This document shows positions 11,728 to 59,174 of a stretch of 64,000 bases of DNA, piece after piece. The DNA is from Chiloscyllium plagiosum (lineage: Eukaryota). The number at the start of each line of letters is the position of its first letter. Within the stretch, counting starts at the first letter, position 1. The notes below the pieces were generated by a model that saw nothing but the letters and a program-made list of their open reading frames with translations, had not been told where the DNA came from and did no database searches. The stretch spans positions 25,367,788 to 25,431,787 of the forward strand of contig NC_057724.1 of assembly GCF_004010195.1 (NCBI RefSeq), given 5' to 3'. Position numbers and translations under genes: made by a program.

Positions 11728-12148
11728 ATTCGGGAAATCTAAATAAATAACACCTGCTAGCTCCCCTTTATCAGGTCTGTGTTCTATCCTCAAAGAAGTT
11801 TAGTAAATTTGCCAAATATTATTCCCCTTTCACAAAACCATGTTGGCTGTTTAATTGTGTTAAGATTTTCTAAATGCTCTGCTATTTTTTTCCTAAATAA
11901 TGGATTTTCACAATTTCACAATCACAACTTTCGGGTAACTGGCCTATAAGTTTCATGCTTCCTGTCTCCCTCCCCTCTTGAACAGTGGCATCAGATTGGC
12001 ACATTTTCAATCTGCTGGGACTTCCTAGAATCCAGTGAATCCTAGAATGTTTCAACTAATGCCTCAGCTATCTCTAATGCTGCTACCTTTAAAACCCTTG
12101 GTTACAGAGCATCAGGTCATGACAATTTGCCTGCCTCCAATCTGATTA

Positions 12149-12368
12149 AAGTTAAAAATCACACAACACCAGGTTATAGTCCAACAGGTTTAATTGGAAG
12201 CACACTAGCTTTCGGAGCAATGCTCCTTCATCAGGTGATTGACAATTACCTGATGAAGGAGCATCGCTCCAAAAGCTAGTGTGCTTCCAATTAAACCTGT
12301 TGGACTATAACCTGGTGTTGTGTGATTTCTAACTTTGTACACCCCAATCCAACACCGGCATCTCCAAA
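12149..12368. mobile_element. Fold-back Penelope-like pLTR insertion (family B) with hammerhead motif and 13-bp TSD
   Basis: Near-perfect palindrome 12148-12336 centred on 12242; TSD TCCAATCTGATTA at 12136-12148 and 12369-12381. Confidence 0.85.
12202..12238 (-). ncRNA. Minimal type I hammerhead ribozyme motif
   Basis: Minus strand CAC-CTGATGA-A-GGAGC-ATT-GCTCC-GAAA-GC-TA-GTG: intact core, stem I CAC/GTG, stem II GGAGC/GCTCC, palindromic AGCT in place of stem III. Confidence 0.7.
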
Positions 12369-13804
12369 TCCAATCTGATTAGTTTGTCAAATATTTTGTT
12401 GCTTGTGATAGAAACTGTTGTAAGCTTTAACCCCATGTTAACAACTTTCTCATTTGATATGTTTGAGATGTTTATAGTATCCTCCACCTTGAAGATCGAT
12501 GTAAAATATTGGTTTAAATTATCTACCATTTCCCTTTCCCTGTTATTAATTAACAAGTCATATTCTCCAATGGCCCAAATGTACGTTAGCTACTGTTTCT
12601 TTTTATATTCCCATAGAAGCTGTTTGTTTGAACATGTTGCTGGTCAACTTACTTTTATTAACAGGTTTGGCTTTTTCTATTTGCCTTTTACTCACCCACT
12701 GGCTCTGAAAGTATTCTAAGTCCTCTGGTCTGCCAGTAGTTTTAGCCCCTTTATATGCCTTAGTTTTTGATTGGATACTATCTTTGACTAAGGATCCTTA
12801 ATCCCTGAGCCTCTAATTAATTATACCTCATTACACATTATGAAATATAAACTATTCTGTTCCTGTGTAGATTGTGCAATGCATTGCTTTAAGAAACAGC
12901 CTTTGATGCATTCTACAAATTTGTCTTCCATGTAACCCTTTCCAATCATTTCTCCAGCCAATATGCAGATTAAATTCACCCATGACAATTATATTTCCTT
13001 TCTTACATACTTCCATTATTTACAGATATATACTTTACCCTGCATTGAGGCATCTCTTCAGGGGTCAGGCAACTCATACATGTCTTTTTTCCCTTCCTCT
13101 TCCTTACTTTCACCCAAACAGATATTGCATCTGTATCATTATTCACCAGTACACTGATAACTTATTAAAAATGCTACTCCACCTGCTTTTCTTCTTTGCC
13201 TCTTTTCTGGAATAAAAAATAATTTTGAACATTGAGTTCCTAGTTTTCATCAGCCGACAATCACATCTGCATAATAGATACCAAGTTATATTCATTTGGT
13301 TCTACTGCTGCCATTAACTCTTCTATCTTAATACAAAAATAGTGTTCTTTCAAATAAAAGCCTTAAGCTTTTCCTTTTTACTGTTCATACATATTTTGGT
13401 TCCAAATTCTGTTGCAATTTTCCACTTATATTTTCTCACACTTCTTTTCACACTTTGATTGTTGTTCACCTATTCACTATCCTGCACTTCTGCTTTCTCA
13501 TGTCTTTATATTTTTCAAATTTCCTGTCAATTGAATGCTCCCTTACAGGTATTTACTTTAAAGTCCTAACTATAAATCTAGTTACAAATAAGATTTGTTA
13601 TAAGCAGCTTGCTTGTGACTTGCCATGTTTCATATTCTTTCATTCAAAGTGTGCTGGCTGCACCTTCCTGCTCAGGAGGATTACTCCATATGGGGCATTG
13701 AGATGGAAGTCAGGCAGCAGCGGGGGATTGAAGAGGTTTTAATGGAATGGTAAGTGAGGTCCTTTCCCAGAGCACAGGAAAATGTCATCATTCAAAGATC
13801 AGAC

Positions 13805-13968
13805 ATCCAGGTTTCTTTCCACAGTCCAAAGACATGCAGGTTAGGTGGATTGGCCATACTAAATTGTGAGGGATTGGGTCTGGGTGAAATGCTCTTGAGA
13901 GGATCGGTGCAGACTTGATGGGCTGAATGGCTTACTTCCACACAGTAGGAATTCTATGATTCTATGAA
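13805..13968 (+). mobile_element. HE1 SINE 3' fragment
   Basis: CCACAGTCCAAAGACATGCAGGTTAGGTGGATTGGCCAT and (ATTCTATG)n tail. Confidence 0.8.
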
Positions 13969-14796
13969 TGCTTGTACTGGATGGTGTCAACTTCAGTGAG
14001 TGGGATTAGAACTGCATTCATCCAGGAAACTGGGGAGGATTATATCAGAAACTCAATTTCCTTCTCCCTTATCTTCAATGCACCTGATTATCCCCCAACC
14101 TCATCCTGCTGCCAAACCTGACATCTACCTTTCCTATCCCCTGCTGGATCGGATTTCTCCTTTCCACCCCAAACAGCCATAATTTCTTACCTGGCCCTCT
14201 TGTCACCTGAAATCCTAATGCCTGATCCAGTTGGCATGCTGCCTCCTTGCCACAGTTACCCAGTTGGTGCCCTATTTGCCTGGCATTCTACCAACCTATC
14301 AAGCCAACATCGACTTACCTTGTAGATATTTTCTAATCAACATGTTCAGAGATGTTATTACACACCCCTGCAGCAACTGGGACTTGAACCAGGGCTTCCT
14401 GGCTGAGATGTAAGACATTACGATGAGCCCCACTGATCTTGGACATTTACCCTTCTGACAGCAATGGCAAGAATGGCAGAGCCACGTTGTTAGTATTATC
14501 ACCTTTAATTAACAAAGTTGCTCCACATACATTCCTTTTTTCTATATCAAGAGCATCAAACTCTCTTTAAAATTCAATTTGCAACCTTGGTGACATTGCA
14601 ACAATGTCTCCACTATTTGTCAAGTCATATACCCATTGTTTCTATAATTTATCCATTCATCAATGAAATAAAGGCACTCTAAAGTTTTCTGACTTGCTTG
14701 TATTTTGTTAGATAATTAGATATTTATTTAACGGACTTTAATGAAGAATCATAGTGAAAGCTAGTACGTACGTGCTGAGTCTATGGTGAGTAGTAT

Positions 14797-16056
14797 TGTT
14801 TTGAACTAGACCAAACCCCCTCAAAATATATAAAGATGATATCTAGATCCTAGCCTTCTTATTATTTTAAAACAAAGTGTAAAGCCTTGTGCTCCGGAAT
14901 TCAATTGGTCAAACTACCAGGCTTGAAACAAAACACAGAGAAAGTGAGGACTGGAGATACTAGTGATCAGAGTCAAAAAGTGTGGTGCTGGAAAAGCACA
15001 GCAGGTCAGGCAACATCCGAGGAGCAGGAGAATCGATGTTTCGAGCATTAGTTCTTCATCAGGAATGTGGGGGAGGATGAAGGGAGCTGGGCGATAAATG
15101 GGAGGGAGTGGGCTGGCGGGAAGGTAGCTGGGAATGTGATAGGTAGATGGGGGGGGGTGATGGTGAGAGGCCAGAGTCGACGGTGGAGAGGATAGAGGAG
15201 ATGAGGAAACTAGTGAAACTGGTGAAATCAACGTTGGGTGATTTCACCAATTTCCTCATCTCCCCTCCCCCACCTTATCTCAGACCCAACTCTCTAACTC
15301 AGCATTGCCCTCTTGATCTGTCCTACCTGTCCATTTTCTTTCCCACCTATCTGCTCCAGCCTATTACCTTCATCTACCTATCACCTTCTAAGCTACCTTC
15401 CTCCCAGCCTCGCTCCCCCTCCCATTTATCTCTCAGCTGCTTGGGCCACCCCCTCCTTCCTGATGAAGGCCTTATGTTCGAAACATTGACTCTCCTGCTC
15501 CTTGGATGCTGCTTAACTGGCTGTGCTTTTCTGGTACAACACTTTTTGACTTGAAACAAAACACATATTATTCATACACTATAATTAAAATGCAGGTAAA
15601 GGAAAAGAAATTGCTTAGTTGTACTCCATTAAAATGCTTAAAATCATATATATGTATTAACTACCAATTAATTATTTCAATACAGTAACATCCCATGATA
15701 ACACCATTGACAAAGGCAAATTCTGCAAAATGGATTGTCTTATGCACAATTCTAGCAGCAGGAAGGGAACCTCAGCTTTTAGCTGTAATAGAGAGAAGAA
15801 TAAGAGCTTCCATATCCAGCTTCAAGACCGCAGCAACTGCTACCAAAGGCTAAAACTAAAAGCAATCCTGGTTCTGTCAGAGGTTGACCCCATCCATTCT
15901 GGCTGCTTCTATGGTTCCAACTTTGTTAAAGAAGATTCCAAACTTCACTAGCTGTTTCCTTTATTAGCTTTCGAGCAGACTGCTCAATACCAATGTCTCA
16001 AACTTTCTTCATTTAAAATGAAAAGGACAAATGACACCTCTTCAAACCACAGTATA
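14797..16056. repeat. Probable solo-LTR-like interspersed repeat, split by the PLE insertion at 14938
   Basis: Starts TG; sequence is continuous across the 16-bp TSD; called on general resemblance only. Confidence 0.35.
14938..15549. mobile_element. Fold-back Penelope-like insertion (family A) with 16-bp TSD
   Basis: Inverted pLTR arms meeting near 15235 in the DFTxFLIS end of the PLE ORF; TSD CTTGAAACAAAACACA at 14922-14937 and 15550-15565; decayed hammerhead cores in both arms. Confidence 0.85.
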
Positions 16057-16893: not shown

Positions 16894-17215
16894 AACATAG
16901 AACATAGAACATAGAAGAATACAGCGCAGTACAGGCCCTTTGGCCCTCGATGTTGCGCCGATCCAAGCCCACCTAACCTATACTAACCCACTATCCTCCA
17001 TATACCTATCCAATGCCCTCTTAAATGCCCATAAAGAGGGAGAGTCCACCACTGCTACTGGCAGGGCATTCCATGAACTTACGACTCGCTGAGTGAAGAA
17101 CCTACCCCTAACTTCAGTCCTATATCTAACCCCCCTTAATTTAAAGCTATGCCCCCTCGTAATAGCTGACTCCATACGTGGTAAAGGAGACCAAAACTGC
17201 ACACAGCACTCCAGT
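16894..17215 (-). mobile_element. Young CR1/HER1 LINE 3' end
   Basis: TRGHSFKLRGVRYRTEVRGRFFTQRVVSSWNALP; (AACATAG)n tail. Confidence 0.9.
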
Positions 17216-17287
17216 GCGTAACTCAAGGGCAGTTAGGGATGAGCCTGACCTGGCCATGAAAGAAAAAAGAAAAACATTACCAGCACA

Positions 17288-17414
17288 GATCATAGAATCC
17301 CTTCAGTGTGGAAGTAGGCTATTTGGCCCATTGAGTCCATGCCAATCCTCACAAAGACTATCCCATCCAGACCCACTCTGTTACCCTGTCCCTGTAACAC
17401 TGCATTTCCCATGG
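17288..17414 (-). mobile_element. HE1 SINE 3' part, cut by the gap
   Basis: CATAGAATCCC...CAGTGTGGAAG tail in reverse complement. Confidence 0.7.
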
Positions 17415-17519
17415 NNNNNNNNNNNNNNNNNNNNNNNNNNNNNNNNNNNNNNNNNNNNNNNNNNNNNNNNNNNNNNNNNNNNNNNNNNNNNNNNNNNNNN
17501 NNNNNNNNNNNNNNNNNNN
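17415..17519. other. Assembly gap (105 N)
   Basis: Run of N. Confidence 1.
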
Positions 17520-17885
17520 TCATCCGCAAACTTGCTTACCCAACCTTCTAACCCCTCTTCCAGGTCATTTATAAAAATGACAAACAGCAATGGTCGCAAA
17601 ACAGATCCTTGCGGAACACCGCTAGTGACGGCACTCCATGAAGACACTTTGCCATCAACTACTACCCTCTGTCTTCTTCCATCCAGCCAATTCCTAATCC
17701 AAACCTCCAACTCACCCTCAATGCCATATCTCCGTATTTTCTGCAGTAGCCTACCATGGGGAACCTTATCAAACGCCTTACTAAAATCCATATATACCAC
17801 ATCTACCGCTTTCCCCTCATCAACCTCCTTCGTCACCTTTTCAAAGAATTCAATAAGGTTTGTGAGGCACGACCTGCCCTTCACA
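17520..17885 (-). mobile_element. CR1 reverse transcriptase fragment, open frame
   Basis: [14 protein letters not shown]...[13 protein letters not shown]...SGVPQGSVL...SKFAD. Confidence 0.95.
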
Positions 17886-20074
17886 ATTGAGTACAATATA
17901 TAAAGAGCAACAGTGTTAAGTAATGCCTCTGTCGAATAATCTCTAGTATAAAAGTTCAACAACTGCTAATGTAAAAGTAGGCATACTTTTGTGTGGGAAA
18001 TGTTAAGTAACAAATGTGACCGGTTAACAAACCATTCTGATGATAAACTACCCTCATATAATGCAGACAGCGAGACCATTTGCATGTTATCTTGGGAGAA
18101 TGGACTGGAAAGGTGAGAAAAAGCTGTTCATACATCAGTACTTAAACTATGATCTTTCTCAGCATGCATCTAAGTGAGTGAATGTGAAATATCTGTCGGA
18201 CTCATTGAGGGTATTTAAGGACATCATTGTTCATTGGTAAGTTCAAACTATTAATTTCATGGAAAGCTGTCAACTATTAGAACAAAATATAATGTAAGTG
18301 CCTCAGATTGAGGTGATAGAATAATGTTTTTTAAGCACATAGCAAATCTATTACTCTTTGTTTATATCCAATCAAATTTTATCCCCCAGGCTGAAATTTA
18401 ATTTTGAAAAATAATAGATCGGATTAAATAATTAGCAAATTTACATTTGCCTTTCACAAGCCCCTGCTATTCATTTTTAGGGTTAATTCAAACAAACAAC
18501 TCCACTAAATTACCTTGGCCTAATGACTAGGATTAGTAATTAAAATGAGAAAATGACTGCAGATGCTTTTCAGAAACCAGCTCTTAGCTTTCTCCACAGG
18601 GAGTCACCAGGTTGATATATACTGAAGACCAAAGGGATTTGCCTGGTTTGAGATGAAATAAAGTTCTCTGTGATTAAGACTCTGGTTAATTCTATCCTAT
18701 AACAACAGATGGCAGACAAATGTCTCCATTAGGAAAGATGAGGAGAAAATGGAAAGGCAAGCATTGGTGTGAGCAGCCAGGTTTCAACTGTGTTTGAAGG
18801 CAGTATTGGCTTCAACCCATGATTTTAAAAGAAGAAGGTAGTAATGTAAAGCCAGTGGCTGTGTATCACATTACATGATCTAGTTTTTGACAAACATTAA
18901 TTAAAAGCAAAAGGAAATTAGAAAATCTTCATATTTCACTGGAAAATCTAAAACTGATCAATTCATTTATTTAGTCAAAGGTATTGATTGTAAGCTAGGC
19001 AGATTTAGCAGACTTGCAGTGAGCATAGAGCTAGAAGTGACAGTGACAATAATGATATGTGTTTTGGTGAAGTTGCTGAAAGGAGACCACTAACCTGTAT
19101 TACAATGCAATACAACTACAAACTGGACAGAAGCAAAAAGATTTGTTGTCTTTATTGAATAATATAATTGAATTACAGCATTTGCTTGAATCATTAAACA
19201 GGTGGATTCTCTTTAACAACACAGAGTAAAACACCTCTAATAATGTAACATGCCATCACAATTACAGCAGAGACGACATGGAGTACAAAAGCAGATATTC
19301 TGTTATATTGATCCTAGTGAATCAGGGGTTCAATGTTTCTGGGGTATAGAAGTGGGCAGAAGATCAACATCCCTACACAGAATTTTAAAAAGACCTTGTA
19401 TGAATTTTTTAACAGTACAGTAAGTAACTTTTTAAAAAGATAATTTCCAAATGTTGCTTACATCTTTAAAAAAATGCTACTTTTGCAACAGTGCACCCAT
19501 ATTTTGTAGCTGAAACCTTTTACCAGCACAGCCAGACACTTTGGCAACTAGTATGAAAGGATAAGTAGCTAAATGTAACGATAAGGTGAAGGGGGTGAGG
19601 GTGGGGGTAAGGATGACAATGTGGGTGAGGAATTGGATGTCATTAAGGTGAGTTGGGTAGGGTGCCAGTAAGTAGATGAGTGCGTATGGTATGTCAGAAC
19701 ATCAGATTATAGTGGATAGAACAGGGAATGTCATATAAGGGTGTGGAGAGGGCAATGGCAGTTGCTAGTGTTAGATACAAGGAGGGAGAATTGGTCTTGT
19801 GCTCATCATGTGGAAGTGTCAGGTTGGTTGAGGTTGGGCCATCTAGAAGGGTTCTATGTGGGGGCTATTGGGAAGGGAGTTATTTGGAGGATCAGTAGTG
19901 ATTCGAGGGTTCAGTTAATAGTTACTCAGGAGTTCGAGCAGGCTTTCAATCCTCTAAAGTTTTCCGGATAAATGATCATTTTAAGCAAGTCTGAATCCAC
20001 TGAAATATTTTTCTCAGGGGAAGCTTTATCAACAATTAAAGATGCAAGGTAATCACCCACTAGAAATTTAATTT

Positions 20075-20240
20075 AAAACCTGAAAGATCTGCAGATACTG
20101 TAAATCAGAAACAAAAATAGAAATTGCTGGAAAAGCTCAGCAGGTCTGGCAGCATCTATGAAGAGAAATCAGATTGACATTTTGATTTGAGTGACCCTTC
20201 CTCAGAACTGAGGACAGGTCACTTGACCTGAAACATTGAA
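20075..20240. mobile_element. PLE-type short element (family C)
   Basis: TGCTGGAAAAGCTCAGCAGGTCTGGCAGCATC...GACCCTTCCTCAGAACTGAGG...GAAACATT fold-back centre. Confidence 0.7.
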
Positions 20241-21024
20241 GAGCACAACTAAGTTTGCAAGAAATGGTTTGATTTAAAGAAACTATGCTGACTGTCATTC
20301 ATTAGCCTATTCCTTTTCCAAGTGAAAGTTTATTTTTATCTTGAGAACTGGCTTCTAATAACTTTCTCACTGTCAATGTTAATCTGTAATTGCTTTGACT
20401 ATATCTTCTGCCTGTTAAATAGCATTTTAGAAAGTTAACAACCTCCAATCCTCATGTTACTCATGTATCTAATGATTAAAAACTGTGACCAATGCCATTG
20501 TAATACCTATTTTTGCTTCTTTCAGATACTTAGGATTCACTCCATCTTGACAGGATGACATCTCAACTTTCAGAAATGACAATTCCACAAATCTTCCTTA
20601 CTGATTGTTATCCTACACATAATTTCATTTTCCTCTTCGGGTAACTTTTACGTCATGCATTGGTGATGAAATCTTATGAAGATAAGTGTAATCAACTCAT
20701 TTAATACTTTAAATATGATACCTACTTTGACAGAATTATTTCCCTTGGGTCATTTTTTATAAGATACATTTTGGATTCAATTTAATATACTTCCCAATCT
20801 TTTCTTATAAACTGACTTTGACTCCTGCATGAATTTTTCAATTTGTTCCTCTATATTCCTGGTTCTTAACTGAATTTAACCTGTGACATTTGTCAGAAAA
20901 TGGGACCAGATATATTAATGGGGAGATAGTTGGTTCCGAACATACACTGAAATTGTGCATTGGGACCACACAAAATCTTGATGCTGTTGACTCTGAGGGA
21001 TTTGTCCGGGAAATTAAAATTCAC

Positions 21025-21207
21025 AACAGGTCTCGCAGCATCTGTGGAAAGAAATCAGAGTTCATGTTTTGGGACTGAGGAAGGGTCACTTTACCAGAAA
21101 TGTTAACTCTGATTTCTCTTCATGGGTGTTGCCAGACCTGCTGAGCATTTCCAGCAATTTCCGTTTTGGTTTCTGATTTACAGTATCCACAGTTTTTTTG
21201 GTTTTTA
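21025..21207. mobile_element. PLE-type short element (family C)
   Basis: Short inverted arm, then CTGAGGA-AGGGTCAC...GAAATGTTAACTCTG hammerhead-like core. Confidence 0.7.
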
Positions 21208-22049
21208 AGTTTAGAATTTTGGTCGGTGATTACCATACATCTTCAACCCTTGATAAAGATCCCCCCCAAGAAAAATATTTCAGTGGGTTCAGACTTGTTT
21301 AAAAATATCGGTTATCCAGGAAACTTTAGAAGATTAAAAGCCTGTTTGAACTCCTGAGTAACTATTAACTGAGCCCTTGAAGTATGATATTTCATGATGT
21401 CAGTTATTGCACGATTATTTAGAATGACTGGAAAGTAGTAGAATCCAGAAAATGATTGTCCAAATCATGCTGCATTTGGAGTAGTTTCAGGAAGTTCCAT
21501 GGATTCTAACAATGATACTTAAGGAGTTTCAAAAGAGTTAGACCTGGTAGCAATGGAAGGGGAAAAGAAACAAGATCAGCAGTGGGTATTAAACATTGTA
21601 CAGGTGGTAAAGAGCACAGCTGAGAGAGCTGGGAAGAGTGAGCCCAACAGCAAAGATAAAAACAGCACAGAGCCAGTGCCACGAGGAACCAAATTGTGGT
21701 GTGACATCACTGAGAAGCAAATAGGTGACTAGTGAGTGAGAAACAACACAGAGAATAATAATCCATAATTTAAAACAACTGGGGAAGAGGGGAGACCCAG
21801 AGCTTGGGTTGTGATATCAAGAATCAAAAGTGCTAAGTGTAGTTAATGCTGGGGAAGGCTCTGATTGGATCTTTGCAAAGCATGCAGCCTGCTGCTTTGA
21901 CAGCAATGAGTCTTTGCTGATCTTACAGGTACTAATTGATATGAAGCAGCCTCTTTTCTTTGATGCTCACTTATGAACAAGCAGGACTGCATGCTTCTAG
22001 GATGGGGTGGGGGGGGGGGGGGGGGAGGGTGGACGGAGTGGGATTAGAG

Positions 22050-22480: not shown

Positions 22481-22559
22481 ATGTCAAATAAGAGCCAACA
22501 TACACACAGCAAAATATGCCGACAATAGTTGGGAAAACAAAACAGGCAAACCGAAGTAT

Positions 22560-22944: not shown

Positions 22945-23828
22945 CTGAGAGTAGGATGCTTAGAGGCTGCAGTGTGACTTAGACAGACTGGCTGAGTAGG
23001 CAAATGCTTGGCAAATGCAATATAATGTGGATAAATGTGAGGTTAGCCACTTTGGTGGCAAAAACAGGAAGGCAGATTATTATCTGAATGGTGGCGGTTT
23101 AGGAAAAGGTGAGGTGCAATGAGACCTGGATGTCATGATGGAACAGTCGCTTGGCATGTAGGTGCAGCAGGTGGTAAGGAAAGCTAATGGCGTGCTGGCC
23201 TTTAAAGTGAGAGGATTTGAGTATCGGAGTAGGGATGTTTTGCTGCAGTTATACAGAGCCTTGGTGAGGCCACACCTTGAGTATTGTTTGCAGTTTTGGT
23301 CTCCTCGTCTGAGGAAGGACATTCTTGCTCTTGAGGGAGTCCAACAAAAGTTCACCAGACTGATTCCTGGGATGGCAGGACTGACTTATGTGGAAAGACT
23401 GGATCGACTGGGCTTGTACTTGCTGGAATTTAGAAGAATGAGAGGGGATCACATAGAAACATATAAAATCCTGAGGGGACTGGACAGGTTAGATGCGGGA
23501 AGAATGTTCATGATGTTGGGGAAGTTCAGAACTGCGAATCACAGTCTAAGAATAAGGGGTAAGCCATTAGGCATGAGATGAGGAAGAATCTCTTTACTCA
23601 GAGTTGTGAACCTGTGGAATTCTCTCCCACAGGAAGCTGTTGGTGCCAGATATATTCAAGAGGGAGCTGGATGTGGGTCTTGCAGTTAAGGGGATCAAGG
23701 GGAATAGAGAGAGGGTGGGAATGGGATACTGAGATTGCATGATCAGCCATGATCATACTGAATGGTGGTGCGGCATGAAGGACTGAATGGCCTACTCCTG
23801 CACTTATTTTCCATGTTACTATGTTTCT
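22945..23828 (+). mobile_element. CR1 LINE 3' portion
   Basis: QQVVRKANGVLAF...LYRALVRPHLEYCLQFWSP...; CR1 3' UTR GAATGGCCTACTCCTGC. Confidence 0.95.
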
Positions 23829-24846
23829 AGAATCAGTCCTTGCTCTGCGTTCCTTTGACCACATCCCACAGCAAGCTACCTGCAATCTTAAAGGGGCAAC
23901 TCCAGAGCTCAGGTAAGATTCAGAAGATCAGCTGCCACTACCTAAGACATTCCAGGTATTAGCAGGAGCACTAGTTATGGGAATGAGAGATATGACAGAG
24001 AAGATTTACAAGGTCAAGAATAGCCAATAGTTGAGACCAAAACATCAAGTGGATCGGACCAGTGACTAATGTAGGTGAAACACAGTGAACATGTTAGTGA
24101 GACAGGGCATTGATCAAATATGTTGTCAAATGAAAAAGATATTACAGGGCATATAATTTCAGTGTGCAATGGAATTTTAATAATAGTGTGTGAAATTTAA
24201 TAGAAGAAAGCAGGCAGCAAGGGAAAACATGGACTTATTCATAACAATCTTTACAGGCTTGCTGGGAATTTGTGTATGAGAGGCTGATGATAAAATTAAT
24301 TTGTGATCAGATCATAGTCAGTGTTTGAGATGAGGTCTTGTCAGAGTTTGTTTATAAACGGGAGTAGAATTGACATTAGAGCAAGCAGTTCAGATCACTA
24401 GGTAAACTGGACTTCAAAGGTAGAGAGGGTCATTTAGTTTTCGGACAATACATTTTTACCCCTCAAACAAAGAGTGAAATGGTTGAGTTTTTACGCCTCA
24501 AGGAGGAAAGTGCATGACAATATACCCTGTCAATATGGCTGAAAGTGCACGAGCCACTTTTGTACAAATGATGAAAGGTCTAAGAGGGTTAACACTAAAG
24601 AGTTACTTTAAGTTGCACCAATAATGATTGATGGGAGAATAATTAAATATCTCCAAGGAGTAAGACCTACCATCTGGCCTTCCTCAACGTTTCTGTAACA
24701 AAATCTATCATATTAACATACTTATACATAGTTGTCATCATGGAATAAGCTATATCCTGTTTCAAATCGACAAAACTAGGAAGGAGTTTAGATCAGAGTG
24801 GTGCTGGAAAAGCACAGCAGGTAAGGCAGCATCCGAGGAGCAGGAA

Positions 24847-24882
24847 GATCGACGTTTCGGGCAAAAGCCCTTCATCAGGAAT
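24847..24882 (-). ncRNA. Minimal hammerhead ribozyme motif in pLTR
   Basis: Minus strand TTC-CTGATGA-A-GGGC-TTTT-GCCC-GAAA-CG-TC-GAT. Confidence 0.7.
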
Positions 24883-25112
24883 AGAGGCAGGAAGACTTCA
24901 GGGTGGAGAGATAAATAGGAGGTGGGGCTGGGGAGAAGGTAGCAAAGAGTACAATACGTGAATGGGGGTGGAGATGGAGGTGATAGGTCAGAGAGGACGG
25001 TGGGGGAAGGTAGCAAAGAGTACAATGGGTGAATGGGAGTGGGGCTGGAGGTGATAGGTCAGAGGGGATGGTGGAGCAGATAGGTGAGAGGGAGATTGGC
25101 AGGTAGGACAGG

Positions 25113-25584
25113 TCATGACAACAGTGCTGAGCTGGAAGGCTGGAACTGAGGTAAGGTGGGGGGAGGGGAAATGAGGAAACTGGTGAAGTCCACATTGAAA
25201 CCCTGAGGTTGAAGTGTTCCGAGATGGAAGATGAGGCATTCTTCCTTCAGGCGTCGGGTGGTGAGGGAGCGACGGTGGAGGAGGCCCAGGACCTGCATGT
25301 CCTCGGCAGAGTGGGAGGGGGAGTTGAAATGTTGGGCCACGGGGCGGTGGAGTTGATTGGTGAGGGTGTCCCGGATATTTCCCTGAAGCGCTCTGCGAGG
25401 AGATATCCAGTCTCCCCAATGTACAGGAGACCGCATCGGAAGCAACAGATACAATAAATGACATTGGTGGATGTGCAGGTGAAACTTGGATGGATGTGGA
25501 AGGCACCTTTAGGGCCTTTGATGGTGGTGAGAGAGGAGGTGTGGGCGCAGGTTTTGCAATTCCTGCAGTGGCAGGGGAGGGTGA
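25113..25584 (-). pseudogene. PLE GIY-YIG endonuclease domain (one frameshift)
   Basis: PCHCRNCKTCAH...FTCTSTNVIYCICCFRCGLLYIGET...LAERFRE/...PVAQHFNSPSH...RRLKEECLIFHLGTLQPQGFN. Confidence 0.9.
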
Positions 25585-25703
25585 CCCTCTCTGACCTATC
25601 ACCTCCAACCCCACCCCCATTCACCTATTGTACTCTTTGCTACCTTCTCCCAGCCCCAACCCCCCCCCATTCATCTCTCCACCCTGGAGGCTTCCTGCCT
25701 CTA

Positions 25704-25738
25704 TTCCTGATGAAGGGCTTTTGCCCGAAACGTCGATT
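25704..25738 (+). ncRNA. Minimal hammerhead ribozyme motif in inverted pLTR
   Basis: ATTC-CTGATGA-A-GGGC-TTTT-GCCC-GAAA-CG-TC-GATT. Confidence 0.7.
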
Positions 25739-26238
25739 TTCCTGCTCTTTGGATGCTGCCTGACCTGCTGTACTTTTCCAGCACCACTCTGATCTAAACT
25801 CTGGTTTCCAGCATCTGCAGTCCTCACTTTTGCCTAAAACAAGTAAGGAGTCAATTCATGGCAAAGCTTATGTACAAGGGAAGATAAACCATAGCATTTC
25901 TTTATGTCAGTCAGAATCAAGAAAGTTCTCCGTAAGCAGGTAGGTAAGGTTAAATCTGAAAGTACACCGCAGCCAAAATTGTTTTCAAATTTCCCAAACC
26001 TGTGAAGTTCACTCCTTTGGTATGCAACTGCATTGTACCACATTACCCTAAGGTATAATGCGAAGCCAATCTGATTTTACACACCAAACACATGCCACAC
26101 CTACACTAAGAAAAGATTTAAGAAGCAATAGGTTGGATGCTAAAGCAAAGAATGATTTTAGAATTTATAATACCTACACAGTGGTGTTCCAATAATTCTT
26201 ACAGTACCAAAACAAATCAATTGAATAATAATTTGCAT

Positions 26239-28625
26239 GGGTCTGAATTAAGTGAAGTTGTGGAAAGTGAAGTTCACCCAATGGCTTTAGTGGATGAAAG
26301 TCTACAAAAATTAGTTCAGCATGCTCTGTTCACCAAAGGGAATTATTGCAAGAATTCTCCAGAAAGCTAGCTGTGGGTATTTTGGATCTTATTGCCTGAA
26401 CCGATTTCTCTGCAGAATAGCATTCGTGCCAGGAATCTCTTTAAAAGAATAATATCAAACACATTTGAAAGCATCAAAGGCGGAATATGTCCCATGGATG
26501 GCACGTTCATACAGGGAACCACAGAAGAAGAATGTGAAGTCGAAGAACAGGGCATGTTAAAAGTTCTCAGACTATGTCACAGATTTATAATCTGAGGTAG
26601 TAACTGACCACAAACCATTGTATCTCTTCTAAATGCAAGTAGGATAGTCAAGACTTTGCCCAAAATACTATGGATCAGATTGAGGCTGATGAAGTCTGAC
26701 CCAATATTGAACTTATGCCCAGGAAATACTAAATAACAGCACACACACTATCTAGGATATTACCAGCTGCAACAAAGAAAACAAACACATCTCATTGAGT
26801 TGAAGCTTACATTTCAGAAGTCACAAAACCCTTATTGGCTACAAAAAGAATGCTGTAAGAAAACCCAGATGCAGAAGCAAGAAAAGCAGAATGCACCAAG
26901 ATGAGGGAATATTGTCTGGAAGGATCACAATGATGTAATAAGAGTTCAGAGAAATAGAAGAGGAACAGCTTCATCAGGAAGCCCAGGACCACCCTCCATG
27001 TGAAAAGGTGGCAGATATGGGACCCACAGGATACACAGGACATAGAGGAGGACCAGAGGATATTGGCCTCAATGCCATTTCCTCTGAATGAATGAGGCGC
27101 AGAGTAGCCAGAGGGTGAGAATGTTCTGGAACACTGTCACAGAATTTTTCCAAGTGATGCACCAGGACATGCGACATGAAGAAATAGCTGGCCATCTTTC
27201 GGCCATAAATGTGACAACCTCACTGAACTCTGATACGTCTGGTTCTCTTTTAGGAGTCACTGAAGACTTGTGTGAGATCTCTCGAAACTCAGCCCACAAA
27301 AGGGTCAAGGTTGTTACTGATGTAGTTTACATAAACTGTTTCATTTTGTTTCCCCATGACGAGATCAGTGCTGCAGACCGGGAGGTAGGTTTTCACAACA
27401 AAGCTGCCTTCCCCAGCTGATGAAGGGCTTTAGACAGTACACCTCTTACACAGAGAAGACCATGTCATACACAACTGAGTTTATCAATAAAAACAACTTT
27501 TACTCCTTTGGCATTCAATTCATCTGTGATCATTAAATTCATCAGTTATCATTGAGAGGTGTGCCCTGGCCACTGTCATGATGTCCTATACCCTTGGAAG
27601 CTCTCATGTTCCTAGTTTGGTTTAATGGTTAAATGCTGAATAAGGATGATTACTGGGAGACCAGGGCTAATGCGACCATTGCTGATGACTTCATTATGCA
27701 ATTCCCCGAATGAGTTCATAAATGTAAAATGCTGCCTATTCTTCATCTCGGACCATGGTAGAGCGGACAGTAAGCTGCTGAAGATTAATTCCAATGCTTG
27801 GATAAGTTTGGAGGGGCATTACTGTACACTTCACACAGAGTGTGTCACATAACCCCAGCATGCTGTGCTCTGCACAACTACAGCAGACAAGAGTGTTGGG
27901 AAAGCAGCCACAGGAGGAAGATGAAGCCATTGAGCAGGATGAACATCACCTTCTGCATGGTAGAGCAGAGAAGTGGCAAGCATAAGTCACATAGGTATTA
28001 ACTGACACCCAATTTCAGTAAATGTGAGCAATGATCACCCTGAGTGTAAACTTATTGGTGGTCAAAAGGCAAATGCCGCTTCTGTTTGTTTGTTTACTTC
28101 GCAAATTAAAATCAAATGTTTGAACTGTTTGAAGGCTAACCAGTATGAGACGGCCCCATATTGAACAAAGATATGAAGCTGGGCCCATTAGCAATGGGGA
28201 AAGAGTTACAGTTACTTAGAAAGGGTTGTAAAATGGGATGAGGCTAAGGATAGGGAAGCTGTGTGGCCTGGATCTTAAACAGCCACAGATAGAAGACTGT
28301 GCACTTGTATGTTTCTGCCATGCCATCTGTGTGACCTGAAAAGTGTTGATTTATGGTTGCTCTCCCACTTGATACACAGTGAAGGGACTCCCAATGTTTG
28401 ACATTTGGGCTTCAAAGGTGGTTTTGATGCCAAGGATCTCAGCAGTGGGGAGTACTTCTGCCTCCTATGATTTGGAGAATATGCTAAGTGGAAACACCAG
28501 CGAGACATGGTGCAATCGTAATGAGGTAAGTTTGGGGAGCCAGGGTGTGAAAACACACGAGGTCTCCTGGAGGGAAATGAAACTCCATGAAGCTCACTAA
28601 TTGAATCCTGGTACAATTCAACCTC
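26239..28625 (+). mobile_element. Internally deleted PIF/Harbinger transposon; boundaries tentative
   Basis: Contains the transposase; candidate ends GGGTCTGAATT (26239) and AATTCAACCTC (about 28625); shared subterminal motif at 28519. Confidence 0.5.
27043..27890 (+). pseudogene. Harbinger (HARBI1-like, DDE_Tnp_4) transposase, disrupted by stops and frameshifts
   Basis: Motifs in order: MNEAQ..RVR; NVTTSLNSDTSGS; DLCEISRNSAHKRVKVVTD; GFHNKAAFP; ALDST; FINKNNFYSFGIQFICDH; PGHCHD; LLGDQG; LMTSL; TMVERT; FQCLDKFGGALLYT; CCALHN. Confidence 0.92.
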
Positions 28626-34630: not shown

Positions 34631-34834
34631 TGTCTGCGTGGGTTTCCTCCGGGTGCTCCGGTTTCCTCCCACAGTCCAAAAGATGTGCAGGTTAGGTGAA
34701 TTGGCCATGCTAAATTGCCCGTAGTGTTAGGTAAGGGGTAAATGTAGGGGTATGGGTGGGTTTTGCTTCGGCGGGTCGGTGTGGACTTGTTGGGCCGAAG
34801 GGCCTGTTTCCACACTGTAATCTAATCTAATCTA
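34631..34834 (+). mobile_element. HE1 SINE, 5'-truncated, young
   Basis: Near-identical to the 3' two thirds of 10083-10401. Confidence 0.92.
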
Positions 34835-35252
34835 AAAAAAAAACACTGCCACAAAGAAAACCTTTTCAGAGCCTTTGCTCTCTCTCTCTCTCCTTTCTCT
34901 GAAACATCTTAAAAGTTTTACAGTTGAAAACATTGCAAAATCTTATCACCACAAGTGGAAGATGCCTAAAGACGAATCACCTCCCTTTTGAAATTCAAAC
35001 TTTCTTGTGACCAGCAGAGGAGTGGGACAAGGAAAGGTATCAGTTCATCTTTCCTAACTTGGGCAGAGTAAGAGATAAGAACATTTTTGGTGTGATCGTT
35101 AGTTTAATTTCCACTAGTATGCTTTCTGTGGATGAGAGGATAGTCAATCCTTTTTTTTCAGATTTTCTGGAATCCATTTTGGAACAGCTATTGGAAACTA
35201 TAGGAGGCCATCTTAAAAAGTCCAGCATCTGTGGTAAATAAAAAAAAAACTA

Positions 35253-35483
35253 GAGATCTGAAATAAAAACAGAAAATGCTGGAGAAACTGAGGAAGTCTG
35301 GCAGCATCTGTAGAGAGAGAGAAAAAAACAGAGTAAATATTTTGAGTTCCGTGAATCTTAATCAAAACTGACTTGTACATGTCTTTTCAAAAGAAGAGTC
35401 GAGGGACTTGCAACATTAACTGTGTTTTTCTCTCTCTAGATATGCTATCAGACATGCTTAGTTTCTCCAGCACTTCCTATTTC
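35253..35483. mobile_element. Degenerate fold-back PLE-type short element (family C)
   Basis: AAATGCTGGAGAAACT...AGTTTCTCCAGCAC inverted arms. Confidence 0.6.
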
Positions 35484-41900: not shown

Positions 41901-42203
41901 ACAAAATCATAGTTCCAAGTTCTGATACATGCTCTAAGTTCATCACTCTTATTCCTGACACTCCTTGCATTGAGATATAAACACTTTAATCCATCCTTTG
42001 CCCTATCAACTGTGTATCCTCCCTGACAGACTCTCTGCATTCTATTTCTGACCTCTTAACAGCTACCCTCTCCTCTGATATATACCTCTGGTTCCTATCC
42101 CCCTGCCAAATTAGTTTAAACTCTCCCGAAGTGCTTTTGCAAATCTCCCACCCAGGGCATTGGTGCCCCTCCAGTTTAAGTGCAAACCATCCTTCATGTA
42201 CAG
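38930..42203 (-). mobile_element. Long CR1/HER1 LINE: end of ORF1 and decayed ORF2 (APE endonuclease, RT) to 3' UTR
   Basis: ORF1 LYMKDGLHLNWRGTNALGGRF; ORF2 [54 protein letters not shown]. Confidence 0.95.
41361..41672 (+). mobile_element. HE1 SINE nested in the CR1
   Basis: Full head, V-domain and tail. Confidence 0.92.
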
Positions 42204-42853
42204 GCTTACTGCATCATATTTCGTGGAGTAATTCTCACCATGAGGCCAAGTGAGTTATCTTGCTGACTATTACCAAATGTGTTACCTTGTTTGCTGTCGT
42301 TGCCTCAGTGGTGAGTATCACTTCCAATTTGTGCACCATTTCTGTAACAACTCAGCAGAGATCCTAGAATTGATCAATGTCCCTGCTGTTGGTGCCATAT
42401 TTCAAATGGTCATTGTGATCTAGACAAGCGCAGTCAGTTCAGTGCTGACCTACATGGTTCTTGACATTTGCACTGGTCTTGGGGGCATGGGGAAATCAAT
42501 ATCCCACTTTCCGGGCCCTGTTACCATCTTTTCTCCAATATCTCACACTCACTCTCTTTGTTACTATACTGATGTCCTACCAAGATACTGAAGCAGTCCA
42601 TGCCCAAACGTAGCAAGACCAGAATAATATCTGGGCTTGTGCTGACAAGTGGCAAGTAATATTCTCGCCGCCACAGGTTCCAGGCAATGACCATCTCCAA
42701 AAAAGAGAGAGTCTAACAATCAACCCCAGACATTTAATGACATCACCATCACTGAATGCCCCAATGTCAACATCCTGGAGCTTATCATTTATCAGAAACT
42801 GATCTGGGTTAAATTTGCAAGTACTGTGGTTACAAGAGTAAGTCAGAAGCTAC

Positions 42854-42985
42854 GAGGAGAAAGTAAGGACTGTAGATGCTGGAGATCAGAGCTGAAAATG
42901 TGTTGCTGGAAAAGCGCAGCAGGTCAGGCAGCATCCAAGGAACAGGAGAATCGACGTTTCGAGCATAAGCCCTTCTTCAGGAATG
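42854..42985 (-). mobile_element. Single-arm PLE pLTR (family A) with intact hammerhead core
   Basis: Minus strand TTC-CTGAAGA-A-GGGC-TTAT-GCTC-GAAA-CG-TC-GATT; absent from the right arm of the inverted duplication. Confidence 0.85.
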
Positions 42986-43309
42986 ACATGTAGTTAGTAT
43001 ATCATCTTCCAAATGTCCACTGAGCCAGTTCACCATCTATAAGTCATAAATAACATTCTTCACTTACCTGGATGAATGAGATCCATGAACATTCCAGAAG
43101 CTAGATACCTCTTAGGACAAATCAATACAGTTGATTGGTCCCACATCTCTCCTTGATCCAATACTGCTCAGTAGCAACAGTGTGTATTTTTACAAGATGC
43201 ACTCAAGAAATTCACTCGAACCTCTTATCAGCACCAGCCAAATCCAAGACAACTTGCATTTAAAAGGAGAAGAGCAGCAGATGCAAACAAACATTACCAT
43301 TTGCAAGCT

Positions 43310-43362: not shown

Positions 43363-43506
43363 TGAAGGCTCTATTAGTTTAGTTTGTTTTCCCTTTTGAT
43401 GGTTGTAAATAAATGCTTATGTTTGGAATTGTCCAATTACGTAACTTTCATCATACTTGTGTATGATATTTCCCTACTGGACATTATTGGGCTGTAGTAG
43501 CGGTGA

Positions 43507-43707
43507 GCTGAAAATGTGTTGCTGGAAAAGCACAGCAGGTCAGGCAGCATCCAAGGAACAGGAGAATCGACGCTTCGGGCATAAGCCCTTCCCGAAACAT
43601 CGATTCTCCTGTTCCTTGGATGCTGCCTGACCTGCTGCGCTGCCTGACCTGCTGCGCTTTTCCAGCAACACATTTTCAGCTCTGATCTCCAGCATCTGCT
43701 TTCTCCG
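43507..43707. mobile_element. Fold-back PLE pLTR (family A) with 13-bp TSD
   Basis: Inverted arms joined inside hammerhead stem II; TSD GTAGTAGCGGTGA at 43494-43506 and 43708-43720. Confidence 0.88.
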
Positions 43708-43849
43708 GTAGTAGCGGTGACCTAGACAGCGTGTGTAGATGTGAGAAGGTACGGAGAAGTGAAGTATGTGCTCCGCTGGTTAAACAGTGACTAGGGTAAG
43801 GCAATGGGGTTATGTCTGAGGGAGTGTCACTGTATGTGCCATGAGCAGT

Positions 43850-44784: not shown

Positions 44785-45600
44785 AAATCCATTTGTGAGA
44801 TGTGGGTATAGCTGGCGGGGCCAGTATTTATTCCCCATCCCCTGTTAGCCTCGGGACAGTGGCTGCAAGCTGCTTTCTTGAACTGCAGCTTCTGCCTTGT
44901 TGTAGATCCAGCCACAATGCCATTAAGGAGGGAGCTCCAGGATTTTGATCCAGCGACATTGGAAGAACAGCAATATATTTCCAAGTCAGGAGGGTGAGTG
45001 GCTGGGAGGGGAGCTTGCAAGTGGTAATGTTTGTTTGCATATGCTGCTTTTCTCTTTTTAGATGCAAGTTGTCTTGAATTTGGCTGGTGCTGATAAGGAG
45101 TTCTGGTGAATTTCTTGAGTGCATCATGTAAATAATACACACTGCTGCTACTGAGCACTATTGGATCAAGGAGTGATGTGGGACGAATTAAATGCATTGA
45201 TTTGTCCTGAAATATATCCAGCTTCTGGAATGTTCATGGATCTCATTCATCCAGGTAAGTGAAGAATGTTATTTATGACTTGTAGATGGTGGACTGGCTC
45301 TGTGGGCACTTGGAAAATGATATACTAACTACATGTTTTGTAGCTTCTGACTTACTCTTGTAACCACAGTGCTTGCAGATTTAACCCAGGTCAGTTTCTG
45401 ATAAATGATAAGCAGAATGTTGACATTGGGAGATACAGTGATGGTGATGCCATTAAATGTCTGGGGTTGATTGTTAGACTCTCTTTTTTGGAGATGGTCA
45501 TTGCCTGGAACCTGCGGCATGGAGAATATTACTTGCCAGCCCAAACCCAGATATTATCCAGGTCTTGCTACGTTTGGGCATGGACTGCTTCAGTATCTTG
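44785..45600 (-). mobile_element. LINE 3' part (second CR1/L2-group family) with complete 3' UTR
   Basis: GWQVIFS...PGNDHLQK; KSWSSLLNGIV; tail GGGATGGGGAATAAATACTGGCC. Confidence 0.8.
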
Positions 45601-45659
45601 GTAGGATGTTAGTATAGTAACAAAGAGAGTGAGTGTGAGGTATTGAAGAGAAGATGTTA

Positions 45660-45999
45660 ACAGGACCCGGAAAGTGGGATACTGATTTCCTCCTGCCCCT
45701 AAGACCAGTGCAAATGTCAGGAACCATGTAGGTCAGCACTGAACTGACTGCGCTTGTCTAGGTCACAATGACCGTTTGAAGTATGGCACCAACAGCAGGG
45801 ACATTGATCAATTCTAGGATCTCTGTTGAGTTGTTCCAGAAAAGGTGCACAAATTGGAAGTGATACTCACCACTGAGGCAACGACAGCAATCAAGGTAAC
45901 ACATTTGGTAATATTCAGCAAGATAACTCACTTGGCCTCATGGTGAGAATCACTCCACGAAATATAATGCAGTAAGCTAAAGGCCATACAATTCAGTCC
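45660..45999. mobile_element. Harbinger-type element end fragment
   Basis: Motif CATTTGGTAATATTCAGCAAGATAACTCAC at about 45900; TIR-like TACAATTCAGTCC at 45987-45999. Confidence 0.45.
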
Positions 46000-47530: not shown

Positions 47531-48525
47531 TAAGACCATAAGATGTAGGGACTGAATTAGGCCATTCGGACCCATCAATTCAGGTCTGCCATTCAATTAT
47601 GGCTGATATTTTTCTCAACCCCATTGTTCTGCCTTTCCTCCATAATCTCTCTCTGACTAAATACACTCAAAGGCTTGACCTCCACAGCCTTCTGTGGCAA
47701 TGAGTTCCGCAGATTCACTACTCTCTGGTTGAAGAAATTCCTCTTCATTACATGTTCTAAAGGGTATCCTTTCACTCTGAGTCCATGTTGTCAATTCCTA
47801 GTCCCTCCTACTAATGAGAACATCTTCATCACATTGACTCTGTTCAGGTCTCTCAGTATTCTGTAACATTCAATGATATTCCTCCCCCCCCCACCTACCT
47901 ATCACATCCTTCTAAACTCCAGGGCGGCATGGTGGCTCAGTGGTGAGCGCTGCTGTGAGGCAGCAGCAGGGTCCCAGGTTCGATTCCAGCCTCGGGTGAC
48001 TGTCTATGTGGAGTTTGCACATTCTCCCCGTGTCTGCGTGAGTTTCCTCCGGGTACTCCGGTTTCTTCCCACAGTCACAAAGATGTGCAGGCCAGGTGAA
48101 TTGGCTATGCTAGATTGCCCATAGTGTTAGGTGCATTAGTCAGAGGGAGGTGGGTTACTCTTTGGAGGGTCGGTGTGGACAGGTTGAGCCGGAGGGCCTG
48201 TTTCTGCACTGTAGGTAATCTAATTCTTCAAACACAGACTCAGTGTCCTCAACCTCTCCTCATATGATAAGCCTGTCATCCCCTATTCTTCTTGCAGACC
48301 TCTTCTGGACTTCCTCCAAGACCTATACATTCTTCCTTAGATATGTGGCCCAATGCTGCTCACAATATTCCAAATGTGGTCTGACCAGATTCAGGATTCT
48401 ATTAAGGTTAGCATGCAGGTTCAGTTGGCAGTGAGTAGAGCAAATGCAATGTTACCACTCATTTCAACAGGACTAGAATAGAAGAGCAGAGATGTACTGC
48501 TGAGACTGTATAAGTCTGGTCAGAC
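47531..48525 (-). mobile_element. CR1 3' part with an inverted 5' segment (48390-48525)
   Basis: KRNFFNQRVVNLRNSLPQKAVE on the minus strand; the adjoining upstream CR1 segment lies on the plus strand. Confidence 0.85.
47922..48225 (+). mobile_element. HE1 SINE nested in the CR1
   Basis: GGGCGGCATGGTGGCTCAGTGG head, V-domain, tail. Confidence 0.9.
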
Positions 48526-56078: not shown

Positions 56079-56122
56079 TCCGTCTAAAAGATTTTAATTG
56101 TGAGTATAAAGTCTAATTTTTT

Positions 56123-56433
56123 GGCACGATGGCACAGTGGTTAGCACTGCTGCCTCACAGCGCCAGAGATCCGGGTTCAATTCCCGCCTCAGGCGACTAA
56201 CTGTGTGGAGTTTGCACGTTCTCCCCGTGTCTGCGTGGGTTTCCTCCGGGTGCTCCGGTTTCCTCCCACAGTCCCAAGATGTGCAGGTCAGGTGAATTGG
56301 TCATGCTAAATTGCCCGTAGTGTTAGGTAAGGGGTAAACGTAAGGTTATGGGTGGGTTGCGCTTCGGCGGGGTGGTGTGGACTTGTTGGGCCGAAGGGCC
56401 TGTTTCCACACTGTAAGTAATCTAATCTAATCT
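56123..56433 (+). mobile_element. Near full-length, young HE1 SINE
   Basis: Matches 10083-10401 along its length. Confidence 0.95.
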
Positions 56434-56699
56434 GTAGGTTGCATATTTTTTGGATAGTTAAGTATATTCAGGTGATTGGGGTTAACAGAGTGTGAACAAC
56501 CTGGCTCTCTGGAGTATACTATTTGATGCCCCTTTTGTGCCATCGTGAAGTTTAGCCACATGGAATGTTGTGCTCACATTGATTAAAGGTTAGGAAAAGA
56601 TGGGTTAGGGAGGTGGAACAGAGAGATTGGAATACGCGTAGCAGTTTTTATTATCTGAGAACATTCTAAGGGACTTTACAACTAAACAGATCTTAATGT

Positions 56700-58121: not shown

Positions 58122-58300
58122 TAGAGTCATGAAGACATGGACCCATAACAGTGTAGAAACTGGCCCTTTGGCCCACCATGTCTACTGCCAACCAATTACA
58201 CTAATCCCATTTACCTGCACTTGGTCCACAGCTGTCTATGCTCTGGCATTTTAAGTACTCATCCAAATGCTCCTTAACTGTAGCAACTGTACTTATCTTA
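58122..58300 (-). mobile_element. CR1 3' end fragment
   Basis: TVKEHLDEYLK...GPSAGKWD* on the minus strand. Confidence 0.7.
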
Positions 58301-58305
58301 CTTAC

Positions 58306-58468
58306 TTCATTTCTGAAGAAGGGCTTATGCCCGATACGTTGATTCTTCTGCTCCTTGGATGCTGCCTGACCTGCTGCGCTTTTCCAGCAACACATTTTTC
58401 AGCTCTGACCTCCAGCATCTGCAGTCCTCACTTTCTCCCTGTAACCTGGTGTTGTGTGATTTCTAACT
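58306..58468 (+). mobile_element. PLE pLTR (family A) joined to a family B pLTR scrap
   Basis: CTGAAGAAGGGCTTATGCCCGATACG...CACTTTCTCC, then TAACCTGGTGTTGTGTGATTTCTAACT, identical to 12308-12334. Confidence 0.8.
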
Positions 58469-58889
58469 AAAATAATATTCGGTACCTAAAACTTCTTTAA
58501 AAAGTTTCATTTTAAGCACAACAATATTGAGGAACACAAATGTATAGATAGATACACAAAGTAAAACTTTGCTCCAAAAAGAATAGCAAAAATAATTGCT
58601 TGGAAAAACCAAGAAGCCTCGATTGTTTGAGCAACATTTTCCACCTGTCATGTGGAAGTATATCTGAAATAGATGAAAAAACTAGTTGTTGCTTTGTCCC
58701 ATGGTGTTTCACAGCTTATTGTAGATCATCACTTCCGTGCATTGGCAGAATCATGTTGTAGTTCATCCTGTCTTCCTAAAGTCTTCAACTTTGTAGATAA
58801 TAATTGTCCATCAGTGACAGGTTTACCACAGTGCACAGATCTCATTATAGTCACAATTCATGAGATTCATGCCTTCTCTGGTGGAACAG

Positions 58890-59045
58890 ACTACATATAA
58901 CATAATCAAAGCAATCAAGAATCTCCAAGGATATGACTTTGAAGTGAAATATAAGCCAGGTACTAGAATGATTACATCTAACACATGGGGCAGAATTCCA
59001 GCGAGCACAAATACAAAGATATTTCTCTTTGATCTACATGTTGAT
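58890..59045 (+). pseudogene. Gypsy-type LTR retrotransposon pol fragment (RNase H C-terminus)
   Basis: LQGYDFEVKYKPGTRMITSNTWGRIP matches LQxYDFxxxYKPGxxMxxADxLSRxP. Confidence 0.7.
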
Positions 59046-59051
59046 GCTCTA

Positions 59052-59174
59052 ATGATGTGGAAGTGCCAGTGTTGGACTTAATGGACAAAGTCAGAAGTCA
59101 CATGACACCAAGTTATAGTCCAACATGTTTATTTGAAATCACAAGCTTTCGGAGCACTGCTCCTTATTCAGGTG
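59052..59174 (-). mobile_element. Single-arm PLE pLTR (family B) with mutated hammerhead core
   Basis: Minus strand CAC-CTGAATA-A-GGAGC-AGT-GCTCC-GAAA-GC-TT-GTG; homologous to 12149-12368. Confidence 0.8.

Follow-up and report, generated by a model that had tools for sequence, protein, structure and literature searches.

Hammerhead-bearing repeats of three short families, here called A, B and C, are scattered over a 64,000-nucleotide (nt) stretch of the Chiloscyllium plagiosum genome (NC_057724.1, positions 25,367,788 to 25,431,787 of the forward strand; 'the window', with copy positions given in the numbering of the whole stretch). Our analysis of this window in the context of the 3.56-Gb genome shows that the repeats are the pseudo-long terminal repeats (pLTRs) of coding Penelope-like elements (PLEs), present as separate very short insertions. 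These stumps are independent insertions with one tail each, and their arms start at a sharp site other than the ribozyme cut. All 11 copies named in an earlier analysis of the same DNA (the original prediction) are present approximately where it had placed them, and its view of them as very short PLE insertions is borne out by links to coding sequence, by target duplications and by a tail at one end only.

Coding links of the three repeat families

Families A and B are each joined to a reverse transcriptase (RT) followed by a C-terminal GIY-YIG endonuclease (EN) in one open reading frame (ORF), whereas C shows these parts only in pieces, and no intact full ORF was seen for any of the three. 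In L087, an A pLTR is preceded by a 461-amino-acid (aa) RT-EN stretch whose matches to RVT_1 and GIY-YIG are weak. In the window, an A copy is indeed joined to a GIY-YIG fragment, as originally claimed, albeit on the minus strand and with a frameshift across two frames; this fragment scores under the cut-off for Pfam GIY-YIG (E=0.29), gave 113,804 first-look candidates, and relatives carry an RT (L087). Long 'open frames' among these candidates turned out to be runs of N. For family B, a 597-aa stretch that is 28% identical to that of A passes RVT_1 (E=1e-7), RT and GIY-YIG are linked at L256, and a sense pLTR follows the RT-EN in 17 of 20 loci, two of the misses having no room for one. The body of family C runs into the end of an EN in L103 and L104, with a GIY-YIG motif 0.6 kb upstream in L236 and an inverted RT piece in L104, so that the link of C to GIY-YIG stands and its link to RT is weaker than for A and B. 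The pLTR with its minimal hammerhead lies downstream of the ORF, and a zinc-finger-like Cys motif lies between RT and EN in A and B (the linker of C was not recovered). Such a Cys-rich linker is a feature of the Neptune and Nematis PLEs (PMC8557442; here and below, comparisons refer to the portions of the cited texts that were available).

The families had been described as unrelated. A and C, however, are homologous from core to tail and align over the whole arm (78% over 68 nt), and it is B that shows no relation to A or C beyond the core. A fourth Penelope family, Poseidon-like and with mostly long copies, co-resides in the genome (L222:1056-1455, L086, L053, L158 and others); it has a minimal hammerhead of its own and, near -50, a TATA-like box (offsets are counted from the first base of the hammerhead core). 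An apparent second EN link for B (L026/L086) was rejected, being a B stub beside an unrelated Poseidon-like element.

Anatomy of the insertions

As genomic background we used 130 evenly spaced 10-kb stretches (1,237,608 non-N bases; 'the sample'), in which a minimal-hammerhead descriptor found 107 matches (5.5 per 64 kb, compared with 0.6 per shuffled set), extrapolating to about 300,000 motifs in the genome. The sample holds 13.8 A, 4.1 B and 4.8 C arms per 64 kb and the window 8, 4 and 8, respectively; the hammerhead density of the window is above chance, yet typical for the genome.

Among the 438 arms in the sample, 204 make 102 tight inverted pairs of 98-267 bp. Once three pairs with mirrored flanks and five pairs near stretch ends had been dropped, a target duplication of 9-18 bp (mode 13-16 bp) was found in 58 of the 94 testable pairs, compared with 0.4% in controls. 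Where both ends were resolved (71 pairs), 67 pairs carried one tail, one carried two and three carried none; the tail is 35-50 nt long and the 3' ends of the arms are bimodal. Inverted 5'-truncated copies, a one-sided tail and a target duplication, the traits of EN-bearing PLE insertions, are thus all present. The three mirrored-flank palindromes (L093:528-646, L181:6180-6322 and L191:1389-1652) have zero or two tails and represent either secondary duplications or assembly artefacts.

The point at which the two arms meet differs from pair to pair, with 52 junction classes in 61 A pairs, 25 in 25 B pairs and 15 in 15 C pairs; a junction common to the copies, as expected from a master copy, was not found. 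Four A classes recur (13 of the 61 pairs), and because two of the four span different loop-II subfamilies these recurrences arise by microhomology.

Start sites of the arms

In the sample, the rate at which arms terminate is about 5% for each base from -11 to 0, compared with 0.3-1.1% at other offsets; the cleavage site, with 0.55-0.6%, is no exception (A and B). In the whole genome, B arms start 120 times at -11, 951 times at -8 and 291 times at -6. At +29, the offset of the cleavage product in B, there are 74 starts, an upper bound given that at least five of 15 inspected matches were small indels inside longer arms; the neighbouring offsets +27, +28 and +30 have 49, 87 and 167 starts, about half of the listed matches at +30 being a deletion variant. 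In family A, 10,295 copies begin at -4 behind three purines, and of 20 C loci picked on downstream sequence alone, two run into the C body and the rest begin within a few bases of the core.

The B starts are marked by an extra base. Among the B matches listed, the base directly upstream was G in 94 of 100 at -8, 60 at -6 and 39 of 100 at -11, whereas the element itself has C directly upstream of -8; unselected B loci gave G 11 times, T once and A never. In 42 contexts from the first 40 listed B loci, the sequence beyond the G was partner arm, filler or flank and never a common body, and because these contexts vary, the G-preceded starts at -8 are not a subfamily. The same test at A offset -5, in the sample, was negative (G 0.08). 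In other retroelements an extra G is a record of the copied cap; a passage supporting this was sought in the available texts and not found.

Promoter-like motifs precede the starts. B has TATAAAT at -38 in two subfamilies (30 of 41 body copies at -40 to -38), so that the -8 start lies 30 nt behind the TATA box; in C, TATAAA lies at -33 and the A of an initiator-like motif at -4; and A has an AT-rich box near -38 in five subfamilies. The -8 peak of B with its extra G likely marks where reverse transcription, primed from both target strands, ran off its template at a capped transcript start.

Transcripts were sought in about 2% of a single-cell poly(A) run whose organism was not shown to be this species. 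In it, 2,150 reads fit a B copy. Of these, 629 have a poly(A) stretch following offsets +57 and +60, with an ATTAAA 12-15 nt before it (L085:4436-4439), and 171 B-fitting reads run upstream into the B 3' untranslated region (UTR). The B-fitting poly(A) reads may stem from a small number of host genes whose 3' end is formed by a B insert, and B inserts may in this way supply poly(A) sites to host transcripts.

How the stumps may arise

The stumps are separate, truncated insertions of the three coding Penelope-like families, and their mirror-image form probably comes about when both nicked target strands prime reverse transcription on the RNA of the element and the copies run off its capped 5' end, which would lie just before the hammerhead. 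Transcription would start 4-8 nt before the core, and the protein would nick both target strands about 14 nt apart; one 3' end would prime at the distal start site, yielding the tail, and the other at the proximal site, yielding none. On a 5' pLTR copy, each cDNA would have only 85-135 nt to run to the cap, where a C would be added, and the two cDNA ends would be joined head to head via microhomology or filler. Longer inserts would result from priming on a downstream pLTR, and the hammerheads in the stumps would be passengers, mostly decaying. In vitro, a Penelope protein has been reported to cut and extend both strands, to use two internal start sites bounding the tail and to have no need of ribozyme cleavage (PMC11167929).

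Several observations weigh against run-off from two primed strands. The in vitro data come from a Poseidon-clade element, and the co-resident Poseidon-like family (31 arms), used as an out-of-sample test of the start site, showed no pile-up of stumps, its short copies being too few. Read mapping for B and A gave no pile-up of starts, A reads only mirroring the genomic profile. A has no textbook TATA box, and the bias towards G is weaker outside B, with 46 of 100 at C offset -4 and 53 G to 47 A in family A, 24 of these A being a palindrome centre; even in B, the G also fits the partner arm in 18 of the 42 contexts. Tail status in the sample did not differ between long and short arms (p=0.28, 0.79). 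A tandem junction (tailed pLTR running into an ORF start) was found in none of 274 tailed arms, and there are assembly gaps inside the long copies. Finally, the variants that the two arms of a pair have in common, although we also count them in favour of this mechanism, could have come about via later gene conversion.

The common variants speak as well for self-priming by fold-back, in which a single cDNA reaches the 5' end of the RNA, folds and is copied back, or an antisense RNA primes itself (Arkhipova et al. 2013). Non-consensus bases common to both arms are two to four times more frequent than after shuffling (39/21/30% versus 9/11/10%), overlaps are present at 37 of the 102 junctions, the recurring junctions lie at short internal palindromes, and fold-back has been proposed before (PMC3846280). 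We nevertheless regard it as unlikely. Extra bases are present at 57 of the 102 junctions, some of which (L291, L307) have an extra base on both arms and filler in between, and the same junction is found with the tail on either arm. Moreover, in 24 of 35 strongly asymmetric pairs it is the arm lacking a tail, which cannot template one, that is longer, and this speaks against a simple fold-back in which one cDNA is made tail first. It is less probable still that the pile-up shows where the enzyme is stopped by structure or releases its template, at the 5' edge of the folded hammerhead, instead of where the transcript starts. In each of the three families the pile-up does fall on the 5' strand of stem I, and the putative start site is read from genomic copies. 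An enzyme would, however, meet the 3' edge of the structure first and be expected to stall there; a single-base peak with an extra G, 30 nt behind a TATA box, does not fit such a stall, and the Poseidon-like family has a similar hammerhead with no pile-up.

The original prediction had proposed a non-autonomous, ribozyme-processed class. A mini-element of this kind, retrozyme-like and copying itself as a unit, would fit the very high copy number and the recurring A junction classes, and retrozymes do derive from pLTRs (10.64898/2026.07.22.740005); we consider it very improbable and largely refuted. Junctions are mostly unique, and two of the recurring classes cross subfamily boundaries; starts at the cleavage site are not in excess over their neighbours; arms stand head to head and not in tandem; and sizes grade up to coding copies. 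We infer, furthermore, that one transcript of a head-to-head insert cannot form a tandem hammerhead dimer in cis, because the two hammerheads lie on opposite strands and each transcript has one sense copy. There is next to no chance that the repeats are miniature inverted-repeat transposable elements (MITEs) of a DNA transposon, an alternative that had been named for B and C and that short palindromes with target duplications would suit: it is refuted by the coding links, the arms running into GIY-YIG and RT, and the single tail and variable duplications stand against the symmetric fixed ends, short fixed duplication and missing RT link of MITEs.

Priming from both nicked strands with run-off near the cap also invites a bolder reading, which we offer as possible and rather doubtful. 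PLEs might have a target-primed counterpart of the retroviral strong-stop step: both nicked strands would prime near the cap, the cDNAs would run off, and the added C would promote either their joining or a jump. The B RNA would be polyadenylated at +57/+60, upstream of both start sites, so that long copies of a monomer would depend on strand transfer between short terminal repeats, as in long terminal repeat (LTR) elements; the palindromes would then be failed transfers.

Hammerhead motifs

A potential self-cleaving motif had been placed on both strands about ten times in the 64 kb; we count only four fully intact minimal hammerheads. A loose core search of the window gave 17 matches, eight of them inside named copies, and the minimal-hammerhead descriptor gave five, four of which have a palindromic stem III and a stem I of at least 2 bp (+25707, -24878, -42980 and -12234). 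Both core boxes are kept in damaged form at +15460, -15062, +20208 and +21075, and the core is lost or mutated in the copies at 43505, 58309, 59053, 35256 and 8050 and in the plus arm of the 12148 palindrome. Intact motifs on both strands are confined to the insertion at 24784-25836. The predicted fold of a monomer of 25701-25740 has the core paired. An Rfam scan of the window returned no hammerhead family at E<=5, and its hairpin microRNA hits are due to chance.

The motifs have the core boxes, bulge, G10.1-C11.1 pair and palindromic 15.2-16.2 pair of minimal type I hammerheads: among the 107 descriptor matches in the sample, the first stem II pair is G-C or G-U in 104 and the 15.2-16.2 pair is present in 86. 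Covariation, proposed as a check for stems I and II, is seen in part. Compensatory changes in stems I-III occur between families (pair 1 of stem I is C-G, U-A or A-U, and stem III is ACGU or AGCU), whereas changes within families are mostly CpG decay. Because a MAFFT alignment of 14 hammerheads was out of register between families, the pair counts come from parsing anchored on the structure. Exact intact motifs number 70,570 for A, 15,013 for B and 267 for C in the whole genome, with none in any of the reversed controls.

Copies and other features in the window

The features are collected in Table 1. The claim that most copies are inverted pairs holds for about seven of the 11, which are clear pairs, with the 8050 copy a weak eighth, whereas 42855, 58309 and 59053 consist of one arm each. 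Target duplications of 13-16 bp flank four insertions.

Table 1. Positions of PLE-derived features in the window
Feature	Position	Strand	Target duplication	Remarks
Family A insertion	24784..25836		24772-24787 / 25836-25851, identity 13/16	about 1.05 kb; long minus-strand sense arm (endonuclease fragment, 3' UTR, tail-less pLTR) and short inverted tailed arm
Frameshifted GIY-YIG endonuclease fragment	25113..25624	-		Cys-rich linker (C-x4-C-x2-C) upstream
Minimal type I hammerhead, intact motif, family A	25702..25740	+		core from 25707; predicted cut after 25734; stem I of 2 bp only
Minimal hammerhead, intact motif, family A	24845..24883	-		core from 24878
Family A inverted insertion	14938..15551		16 bp, 14922-14937 / 15550-15565	tail on left arm; stem II damaged in both hammerheads
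Family A mini-palindrome	43505..43707		13 bp, 43494-43506 / 43708-43720	joined within stem II; junction cost the CUGA box
Family A single arm with tail	42855..42984	-	none found	intact hammerhead motif, core at 42980; start at offset -4
Family A single arm with tail	58309..58468	+		GAAA box mutated; 30-bp family B stub directly after
Family B mini-palindrome	12148..12371		13 bp, 12136-12148 / 12369-12381	young, arms 96% alike; tail on right arm, which begins at 12242 (offset -8) behind a G; intact hammerhead on minus strand only (core 12234)
Family B single arm with tail, older	59053..59180	-		core mutated
Family C arm with tail and short second arm	20074..20233			damaged hammerheads
Family C palindrome	21017..21207			within inverted duplication with 19902-20205, flanks included
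Family C palindrome, old	35256..35482			arms about 71% alike; no core left
Family C remnant, very old	8050..8225			no core left; second arm weak

Two of the C copies, at 20074 and 21075, probably go back to a single insertion that was duplicated, because they have inverted flanks in common: 19902-20205 and 21075-21381 form an inverted duplication (82%) that takes in the C insert and about 170 bp of flank. A larger inverted duplication (42204-43309 / 45012-45977, about 91-92% alike, 3.8-kb span) holds the single A arm at 42855 in one of its copies only. Family B stubs lie directly at the tail end of A arms at 58439-58468 and in L089:5313-5359, possibly through insertion into, or template switching between, Penelope families.

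Beyond the Penelope families, the window contains several copies, on both strands, of a tRNA-like short interspersed element (SINE) family (10078-10400, 34600-34850, 41357-41690, 47917-48245, 56114-56447 and 666-815) and, at 17166-17965, 23080-23581, 39106-39660, 40250-40746 and 41714-42055, fragments that resemble the RT and endonuclease of long interspersed elements (LINEs) of CR1/L2 type. Two overlapping open frames of about 110 aa lie at 26807-27420, one of which reads like a host exon.

Comparison with known systems

The elements and the architecture of their inserts are already known from published work. EN-bearing PLE insertion units (Pen2a_Av and others; PMC3846280, overview in PMC8557442) likewise have an inverted 5'-truncated pLTR, a palindromic junction and TATA and initiator motifs in the pLTR, with a 30-40 bp tail at one end and a target duplication of 8-10 bp (PMC3846280). 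Unlike those units, the inserts described here often consist of just two arms of 85-135 nt, occur at very high copy number, show a measurable start peak with an extra G, and have longer duplications and, in A, a tail of about 48 nt.

The hammerheads match the minimal hammerheads of metazoan PLEs (Cervera and De la Pena 2014, PMC4209133) in core, bulge before stem II, G-C first pair and palindromic stem III, and differ from them in the short stem I, of just 2 bp, in the main A subfamily. That study described pairs 100-700 bp apart on opposite strands and ascribed most single motifs to truncated PLEs; its counts, obtained with another descriptor, were about 4,000 and 9,000 in coelacanth and Xenopus, far below the total of at least 85,000 exact intact minimal hammerheads in the present genome.

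PAc, a Poseidon element of Anolis (Frangieh et al. 2024, PMC11167929), is alike in its two tail-bounding start sites, in the cutting and extension of both strands and in the dispensability of ribozyme cleavage; it belongs to a different clade, and the available part of that report gives no explanation of inverted arms or of a stop at the transcript start. Twin priming of LINE-1 (PMC11702581) resembles our proposal in that the second target end primes a second cDNA, the junction shows microhomology and the target duplication is kept, and differs in that the second primer lands anywhere and the pieces do not overlap, whereas here both arms copy one stretch from two fixed sites. Non-LTR retrozymes (10.64898/2026.07.22.740005) are also non-coding and pLTR-derived with a type I hammerhead, yet they are head-to-tail tandems, whereas the present repeats, head-to-head or single, carry tails and target duplications and begin elsewhere than at the cut.

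Our literature search, in the accessible texts outside subscription journals and Repbase, found no account of Penelope stumps that stop at the transcript start or of Penelope twin priming, and the available part of the overview calls the way in which PLEs build inverted ends undefined (PMC8557442). What the stumps add to these systems is sample size, giving sharp testable coordinates for the start site, the two priming sites, the extra G and the unused ribozyme cut.

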